Assembly (NCBI RefSeq): GCF_003334305.1
Contig: NZ_QOWS01000003.1
DNA from: Escherichia coli
Lineage (GTDB): Bacteria > Pseudomonadota > Gammaproteobacteria > Enterobacterales > Enterobacteriaceae
DNA length: 64,000 nucleotides
Direction: 5' to 3' (one strand)
The position numbers and the translations under genes are program-made. How positions within the stretch are numbered: position 1 is the stretch's first letter; each line of letters opens with the position of its first letter. The notes beneath the pieces are model-generated. The model had not been told where the DNA came from and did no database searches. It saw only the letters and a list, made by a program, of their open reading frames with translations. Below, one piece after another: positions 58,872 through 60,324 of the stretch.

Positions 58872-59290
58872 AAATTTCACTCATTTGTAGGATACAGAAA
58901 GCAATACAAAGCCCGCATAAACAATTAGCATTTATGTTGTGTAGTATTTTTTGCCAGGCTTATAGTGTCTTTGGCAACCGATAGCTGTATTTTATATTTT
59001 TTGTATAATGTCTCCTGTGAAAAATCTCTTTCCACATTATTTAAATAAACAGAGAGCCAGATTAAATACTTGAGTATAAAATCTCTGCTGATGTTTAATT
59101 GATTTGAATGTTCGTAAGCTATATCACTTACTCAATTCATTTTACCCAGAGTCATAAAATAGAGTGTCTGTTGATCTCATTTTCATATTCCTTTCAGACT
59201 GAAGTGCATTTTCATCACCCGATGAGAAAGAACTGAAGTGATGTTTGCCATAGATTACGAGATGCCCAGTCTCATTGCCTATCGTGGTGC

Positions 59291-59310
59291 ACCTTTATAC
59301 CTGTTATACC
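59291..59310 (-). promoter_or_regulatory. NanR operator-like GGTATA repeats (GGTATAACAGGTATAAAGGT on the minus strand)
   Basis: Direct GGTATA repeats of the kind bound by NanR, in the nanC-fimB intergenic region about 420 bp upstream of nanC. Confidence 0.5.
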
Positions 59311-60324
59311 AGATCAAAAATCACGCAATCCATACAACGAAACCAGATTTGCAATTCGTGTCACAAAATATGTCGATCTTTTTCTAAGAAGAAGATGCCA
59401 TGTGAAGCCAGACGAACACTTGCGGAGGCCTTCACAAACCAAAGATTGTTGTTTAATTGTATGTTTTATAAGTAATTTATTTAAAGTATAAACAAGGAAA
59501 GATTTGCAAGCTAACTCAGTGAGCGTGGTGAAAATCAGTGTTTACCCGCCATCAGGCTGAGCATAATTCTCATCATGAAATATGTTTCCTGGTTTGTGGC
59601 TTGTAACTGGTCACTTCTGAAGTCGATCTGGAGAGGCTTGTTGATGTTGGTGTTTTCAGGATGATGTTTCACTTAGTTTGTTTGCCGTATCGCCCGGCGA
59701 ATGGCTGTGATTGAGGAAGGTTTAAGTCGTAGTGACCAAAGCTATATTTACCAACGAATGTAGATGAAAAAATCATCTCCTGCGTTCCCCATATCTCCAG
59801 GATAAAAAGGAATGTAACAATCTCATGGCGTAAGCTGACGAATCAGCCAGGAATAATCGCTAGGGACCTAAGAATTAGCATGATAATAGCCACTAAGAAA
59901 TTACTGCGCTCCATGAAATAGCCATTTTGTGGCAAATGGAGTTGACTAATAATGTCATATGTGAGACGGCTAGTTGAACGAATATTAAATTTTGCTGAAT
60001 TTTTTATGTTGATTTTACTTGTTACAGAACATATCACATGATATATAGATAAGATTAGTTGCATTAATGATGAGGGTTATTATTAGATTCGTATCCGATT
60101 GATAAATATATAAAGGTACATAGCATGCAAGAGCATGGCGTTTGTATGGCAACGTTATTATAATTAACTGTTGCTACTCCATTTAAGTTCACTCAGAAGA
60201 ACTGGTCCACTTACGTTAGTTATTAAGCAAACGTTCGCTTTTATAAACATAATCAGGATAAAAATGTTGGATTATTGCTAACCCAGCACAGCTAGTGCGC
60301 GTCTGTAATTATAAGGGAAAAACG

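Follow-up and report, generated by a model that had tools for sequence, protein, structure and literature searches.

nanC and fimB are divergent genes within the 64,000-nucleotide stretch of Escherichia coli DNA analyzed here, which we call the window. nanC lies on the minus strand (58155-58871, ATG at 58871) and fimB on the plus strand (60325-60927, ATG at 60325). The open reading frame (ORF) and annotation boundaries of the two genes leave exactly 1453 bp between them (58872-60324), the noncoding gap for which a reading made from the sequence alone (the sequence-only reading) had given a length of about 1.45 kb. That reading also called the gap AT rich, and the GC content of this nanC-fimB intergenic regulatory region is indeed 0.362 (36%), compared to 0.483 for the 64-kb window and about 0.43 for nanC and fimB. 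No features are annotated in the spacer in K-12 MG1655, in strain A7, or in any of the other records listed. The spacer is present in 5110 of 5426 complete E. coli genomes, and the DNA of E. coli strain A7 is 100% identical to it throughout.

Alignment to the characterized K-12 region, which the sequence-only reading had proposed as a check, ran end to end and left the NanR operator unchanged. The counterpart in K-12 MG1655 (NC_000913.3, 4539502-4540956) is 1455 bp long and about 97.5% identical, differing by approximately 37 substitutions and four single-base indels. Roughly half of these substitutions are in a 189-bp segment between two NagC operators that we refer to as the filler. The K-12 nanC(yjhA)-fimB region, with its elements ONR, ONC1, ONC2, and OSA1/2, the fimB promoter, and the 271-nt untranslated region (UTR), has been characterized by the Blomfield and Plumbridge laboratories. 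The window contains the same locus in the same gene order, and all of the published sites are exact and stand at their published distances. Coordinates of these sites were drawn from later papers that cite the primary reports. The identity, position, and conservation of each element were computed, and binding and regulatory effects were taken from the literature. Alleles were compared in a set made up of the window, K-12, and ten alleles spanning 94 to 99% identity (12 strains), with a divergent allele from a genome labeled E. coli E69 (L096) as the 13th. The E69 allele, found by scanning one genome per species for an exact operator 20-mer, is 79% identical over 1064 nt; its footprint ends at window position 59772, and nothing in the complete-genome set exceeds 95% identity to it.

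A NanR-type repeat, GGTATAACAGGTATAAAGGT, had been noticed at 59291-59310 on the minus strand, and we located it there. This sequence is the sole match in 64 kb even when three mismatches are allowed (chance expectation, 0.01). Lone GGTATA hexamers occur in the window at the chance level (19 seen versus 17 expected), so the signal lies in their tandem arrangement. The pair of direct repeats separated by aca (59296-59310, minus strand) has no mismatches, its gap is within the 2 to 3 nt of the repeat type, and it too is unique in 64 kb. The complete operator (59288-59310, minus strand) reads GGTATA-aca-GGTATA-aa-GGTGCA and consists of two perfect hexamers and a degenerate third (59288-59293). 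The assignment to the NanR operator type thus stands as far as the tandem GGTATA is concerned, with the qualification that there are two perfect repeats plus a half repeat and not three, as in the canonical (GGTATA)3. The K-12 nanC operator, GATCT-GGTATAacaGGTATAaaGGTGCA, is identical in the window and has the same GGTGCA. On this comparison, the degenerate third hexamer already belongs to the known nanC operator and does not set the window apart from it. Conservation of the repeats in K-12, on which the sequence-only reading had staked its claim, extends to the adjoining GATC and about 90 bp around them, all identical in K-12, and the 20-mer and its GATC are invariant in all 12 E. coli alleles and in E69.

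The other sialoregulon operators of K-12 are close relatives of this site. The nanA operator is GATCT-GGTATAacaGGTATAaaGGTATA, and that of nanX has the same sequence; these operators of nanATEK-yhcH and nanXY (yjhBC) are identical to the nanC operator over GATCTGGTATAACAGGTATAAAGGT and differ from it in the third hexamer, which is GGTATA at nanA and nanX and GGTGCA at nanC. They also differ in placement, since the nanA operator begins 58 bp before the start codon and the nanC ATG is about 420 bp from its operator, and in that the nanC operator also serves the divergent fimB. The operator lies upstream of nanC in DNA with 53 bp of homology to the nanX promoter, which places it in a sialoregulon promoter. 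In genomic SELEX (systematic evolution of ligands by exponential enrichment), a NanR peak was found in the nanC/fimB spacer of K-12 (PMC5934670), where the operator sequence is identical. Horne et al. reported a KD of 25 nM for two GGTATA repeats and 20 nM for three; two repeats formed only two complexes, and one repeat bound poorly (PMC8012715). Two GGTATA repeats therefore suffice for nanomolar binding of NanR. Given the degenerate third hexamer, the nanC operator may be occupied by two NanR dimers, not three.

The exact 20-mer is also found in the nanR-nanA spacer of about 75 Enterobacterales species (L017-L096; one genome per species). The third hexamer of these nanA operators is GGTATA in 39, GGTATG in 19, and GGTACA in 15, and the nanA start codon typically lies 57 to 61 bp downstream of the operator start. 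Three matches to the 20-mer are on contigs labeled Bacteroides, Methylobacterium, and Chryseobacterium. The Bacteroides and Methylobacterium contigs, at least, appear to be contaminating Escherichia DNA: L021 encodes FimB and FimE proteins 100% identical to those of K-12. Two other NanR-like sequences in the window were rejected. One, TATATAaaGGTACA, at 60109-60120 in the fimB leader, is an inverted-repeat partner of the operator with three mismatches, a class seen 31 times versus 30.6 expected. The other, the triple GGTAAAcaaGGTATAgctGGTGCG at 46682-46705, is inside a 433-codon ORF (45959-47260, minus strand) and was taken as a chance match.

One base from the NanR operator is a GATC (59312-59315), a Dam site that is kept in 13 of 13 alleles; the GATCT junction is shared with nanA and nanX in K-12. 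NanR binds within 5 bp of the operator-side GATC, the methylation of which varies over time (PMC5155068). A second GATC (59375-59378) is located 3 bp from the nearer NagC operator. Unlike the NanR-side GATC, it is not universally conserved, having become GATA in L005, L009, and E69.

The sequence-only reading had expected further regulator sites that could not be resolved by eye. Those found are two NagC and two SlyA operators, all matching published ones. ONC1, or "fimB1" (59350-59372, plus strand, TGCAATTCGTGTCACAAAATATG), and ONC2, or "fimB2" (59562-59584, plus strand, CATAATTCTCATCATGAAATATG), are exact matches to the experimentally known NagC sites tabulated in the FITBAR paper (PMC3098098, Table 1). 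A NagC matrix scan, another of the suggested checks, was run on both strands of the window (128 kb) with a position weight matrix built from eight non-fimB sites, avoiding circularity. ONC2 ranked first at 18.2 bits and ONC1 fourth at 11.1 bits, so that ONC1 taken alone is only a moderate match. fimB1 is invariant in 12 strains, and fimB2 is exact in 11 of the 12. Twelve of 13 alleles, among them the lineage with a 38% different filler, have 212 bp from the start of one site to the start of the other; the allele left out of this count is L008, in which ONC2 differs and was missed by the search pattern.

NagC is reported to need both sites at fimB, acting via a DNA loop. Two 23-bp NagC sites are likewise needed together in the two-operator loops at nagE-nagB, chb, and glmU. 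Those are promoter-proximal repressor loops, whereas at fimB NagC acts positively from about 0.5 to 0.7 kb upstream of the promoter. The fixed two-site geometry found here, 212 bp or about 20 helical turns, is what cooperative looping would require, and a loop between ONC1 and ONC2 is predicted.

On the fimB side of the spacer, the sigma-70 promoter occupies 60019-60054 on the plus strand, with a -35 element TTGTTA (60019-60024), a -10 element TATATA (60042-60047), and a transcription start at 60054. We placed the start there because the fimB 5' UTR is 271 nt long and a published deletion ends at -277, beside the -10 element (PMC3911127). A consensus promoter scan gave four promoter-like matches versus 6.2 in shuffles and missed the real fimB promoter, since the -10 TATATA fails the rule of the scanner. 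No column is variable among the 12 strains from 59981 to 60080, which includes the promoter and start. Upstream of the promoter are the SlyA operators (59860-59886, plus strand), OSA2 (CTAGGGACCTAA, 59860-59871) and OSA1 (TTAGCATGATAA, 59875-59886), which overlap H-NS sites. They lie at -194 to -168 from the fimB start, and the published span of the operator sequences is -194 to -167 (PMC3173223). The 5' UTR (60054-60324, plus strand; PMC3911127) contains, also on the plus strand, an SphI site (60123-60128), an ops-like element (OLE) (TGGCGTTTGTAT, 60136-60147), and a Shine-Dalgarno sequence, AAGGGA (60313-60318). The SlyA operators, -35 and -10 elements, UTR, OLE, and Shine-Dalgarno sequence are all at their published positions relative to K-12 fimB.

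Measured from the same start, the operators for NanR and NagC extend from -763 to -470, with ONC2 at -492 to -470. The published figures are "around 760 and 470" upstream for the NanR and NagC operators, with a NagC site "around 470" upstream of the fimB start (PMC3173223). Agreement of these distances means that the published landmarks check against each other. L013 and L014, the two most divergent alleles (B2-like and clinical), carry a 13-bp insertion, AATACACAGTCTG, at window position 59803/59804, between ONC2 and the SlyA operators. In L004 (strain S1-IND-02-A), an IS1 element is inserted 7 bp past the fimB transcription start (equivalent to window position ~60061 onward), and a deletion runs from IS1 to the 3' end of fimH, so that gntP now adjoins the spacer. 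The IS1 insertion and deletion account for the spacer matches that cover only 82% of the query.

For the nanC side, we infer the position of the promoter and leader, as well as the CRP box. The nanC, nanX, and nanA promoters have a common module (L015 and L016 are the K-12 nanA and nanX promoters), in which a CRP-like box is followed by a TGTATGG..TG block, GATCT, and then the GGTATA repeats. The CRP-like box is centered 46.5 to 47.5 bp upstream of the operator at all three. At nanC, it is TGTGAcacgaaTTGCA (59350-59365, minus strand), and its function there is proposed by analogy. This common module suggests a duplicated promoter-operator cassette. The NanR operator lies within promoter regions (PMC8012715); on the basis of that statement and the module shared with nanA and nanX, the nanC -10 element would be TATAAC (59303-59308, minus strand), inside the operator. 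The putative start would be near 59295, with a predicted leader of about 425 nt (58872-59296, minus strand). This leader sequence is 85% identical to that of E69 and has low diversity in E. coli. ONC1 (fimB1) overlaps the CRP-like box, and its placement on top of the box would explain repression of nanC by NagC.

Conservation is concentrated on the operator block. Of 5100 genomes, 5065 match the 93-bp NanR/ONC1 block (59288-59380) at 95% identity or more. In sliding windows of 30 positions compared with E69, 28 to 30 match from 59291 to 59380, a stretch that comprises the operator, GATC, intervening spacer, and fimB1. The DNA immediately past the third hexamer drops to 13 of 30, the DNA neighboring the operator block gives 12 to 19 of 30, and the mid-spacer gives 12 to 18 of 30, with a recovery to 24 of 30 around fimB2. 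Other direct or inverted repeats in the spacer were 12- to 13-mers of chance size only.

From the identity of its elements and their spacing, we identify the region with high confidence as the nanC-fimB control region of E. coli; the allele differs little from the one characterized in K-12. The spacer is thus already known and contains a standard, ordinary circuit. The sialic acid control of nanC and fimB put forward in the sequence-only reading fits the K-12 literature, and the operators for it are intact here. In K-12, where the operators are identical, NanR and NagC at the distal operators raise fimB expression, and NagC represses nanC. Neu5Ac and GlcNAc inactivate the regulators, leading to less fimB expression and less FimB-driven OFF-to-ON switching. 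From approximately -500 to +150, the AT-rich DNA is coated by H-NS, against which SlyA acts close to the promoter.

Applied to the window, this circuit would run as follows. The NanR operator with its Dam site and the pair of NagC operators, spaced at 212 bp, lie 0.47 to 0.76 kb upstream of the fimB promoter; relative to the divergent nanC promoter, they would overlap it or stand immediately upstream. When neither sialic acid nor GlcNAc is present, both regulators would occupy their sites, repressing nanCMS and raising fimB transcription from afar. With the sugars present, the regulators would be inactivated, nanC would be induced, and fimB and OFF-to-ON switching of type 1 fimbriae would go down. 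Nearer fimB, the SlyA operators would counter H-NS silencing of the AT-rich DNA, and the sigma-70 promoter would yield a 271-nt leader on which MicA acts near the ribosome-binding site. In this way, the type 1 fimbriae switch and sialic acid uptake would both respond to two amino sugars of the host, sialic acid and GlcNAc, which signal mucus and inflammation. Two decades of work on K-12 have already established the circuit, and its intact presence in this strain is confirmation only; the frozen operators and spacing, together with a filler that is the most variable part, are a small comparative addition.

Alternatively, the distal NanR and NagC sites might belong to the nanC promoter only, with the effect on fimB arising indirectly from divergent nanC transcription or local supercoiling and no dedicated long-range complex. 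The combination of operator, GATC, and CRP-like box is the same module as in the plainly repressed nanA and nanX promoters, ONC1 overlaps the box, and the literature calls the mechanism of distant fimB activation unclear. However, NanR and NagC are published to activate fimB from these operators, independently of SlyA (PMC3173223), and a higher-order complex is favored by the strict distance of 212 bp to ONC2, which lies toward fimB. We consider the indirect explanation improbable.

A structured noncoding RNA or riboswitch-like leader as the main content of the spacer, either in the 271-nt fimB UTR or in the putative 425-nt nanC leader, is very improbable. Both leaders are unusually long, the 420 bp on the nanC side are better conserved than the mid-spacer, and the fimB UTR is a known target of posttranscriptional control by MicA (PMC3911127). 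Against this, an Rfam scan of 58700-60500 gave no match up to an E value of 1, the folding energies resembled those of shuffled sequences (z = -0.12 for the fimB UTR and z = +0.68 for the nanC leader), and the nanC start site is itself a predicted one. A terminator scan found one hairpin, at 60124-60137, at the chance level.

The presence of any small protein-coding gene within the spacer can practically be set aside: several ORFs of 40 to 70 codons are present, those at 59275-59475 (plus strand) and 59843-60064 (minus strand) are open in the window, and the latter has a slight third-position excess of single-nucleotide polymorphisms (SNPs; 3/3/8), but in 9 of 12 strains the former is cut short by a stop at codon 56, and its SNPs are distributed 13/15/7 by codon position, the latter is frameshifted in K-12 and has lost its stop codon in seven other strains, both overlap known operator or promoter DNA, and the K-12 record is unannotated in the spacer, although tiny proteins (such as ythB and ykiE) are annotated elsewhere. 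The two frames, broken across strains, do not behave as coding sequence, and the sequence-only reading was right to call them unsupported.

Within the nanC-fimB control region, the filler between the NagC operators (59373-59561) stands apart: its length is invariant and its sequence hypervariable. It is 189 bp long, with zero indels, in 13 of 13 alleles, yet no other part of the spacer varies as much, and its haplotypes are deep. Compared with E69, 71 to 74 of the 189 positions differ, versus 24 to 28 of 189 in a control of equal length taken from the nanC side. Among the E. coli alleles, as many as 28 of the 189 (15%) differ, versus no more than 6 in the control. Between the window and K-12, there are 19 differences in the filler, approximately 18 of which are in a core at 59420-59505, making the core about 21% different. 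At 4-fold sites of nanS, nanM, nanC, fimB, and fimE, the difference from K-12 is 4.2% (24 of 576), so that the divergence of the core is about five times that of the flanking 4-fold sites in this comparison. Divergence above that of synonymous sites means that relaxed constraint alone is insufficient as an explanation. The filler haplotype of the window is a minority one, with at least 90% identity in about 27% of complete genomes; for 59415-59507, identity to the window is at least 95% in 695 of 4739 genomes and 80 to 90% in 3059.

A segment with a fixed length and a free sequence would suit a loop of about 20 helical turns, and we infer such a spacer role from the alleles compared here. A weak IHF-consensus-like match, AATAAATTACTTA (59469-59481, minus strand, one mismatch), is near the midpoint (59467) of the NagC site centers, and matches to WATCAANNNNTTR in the spacer are at the chance level (3 seen versus 3.6 expected). 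Sohanpal et al. reportedly described in 2007 an IHF site between the NagC operators, with which the position of 59469-59481 fits. It is conceivable, though we think it rather unlikely, that the filler is a length-locked, unusually fast-evolving loop spacer, the haplotypes of which alter IHF bending or loop geometry, so that the sensitivity with which fimB and nanC respond to sialic acid and GlcNAc would differ among lineages. If so, variation in the filler would be maintained regulatory variation, not neutral drift. The haplotypes offer a natural allele series for distant activation of fimB, the mechanism of which is still called unclear.

Other parts of the window also differ among records. 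The invertible element fimS (62049-62362) has inverted repeats at 62049 (TTGGGGCCA) and 62354 (TGGCCCCAA) and is collinear with that of K-12 MG1655. In the RefSeq record of A7, fimS has the opposite orientation, although from 40000, at least, up to this element the record and the window are identical. nanS (55984-56964, minus strand) is an intact 326-codon ORF, the product of which is 98% identical to K-12 NanS. In the identical DNA of A7, RefSeq annotates nanS as a truncated sialate O-acetylesterase pseudogene, a call that is probably an annotation artifact near an overlapping ythB-like small ORF. Upstream of nanS, window positions 40000-56000 are a restriction/defense cluster, for which RefSeq names HsdM, a restriction subunit S, McrB, and McrC; at this position, K-12 has yjhR, topAI-yjhQ, and yjhP.
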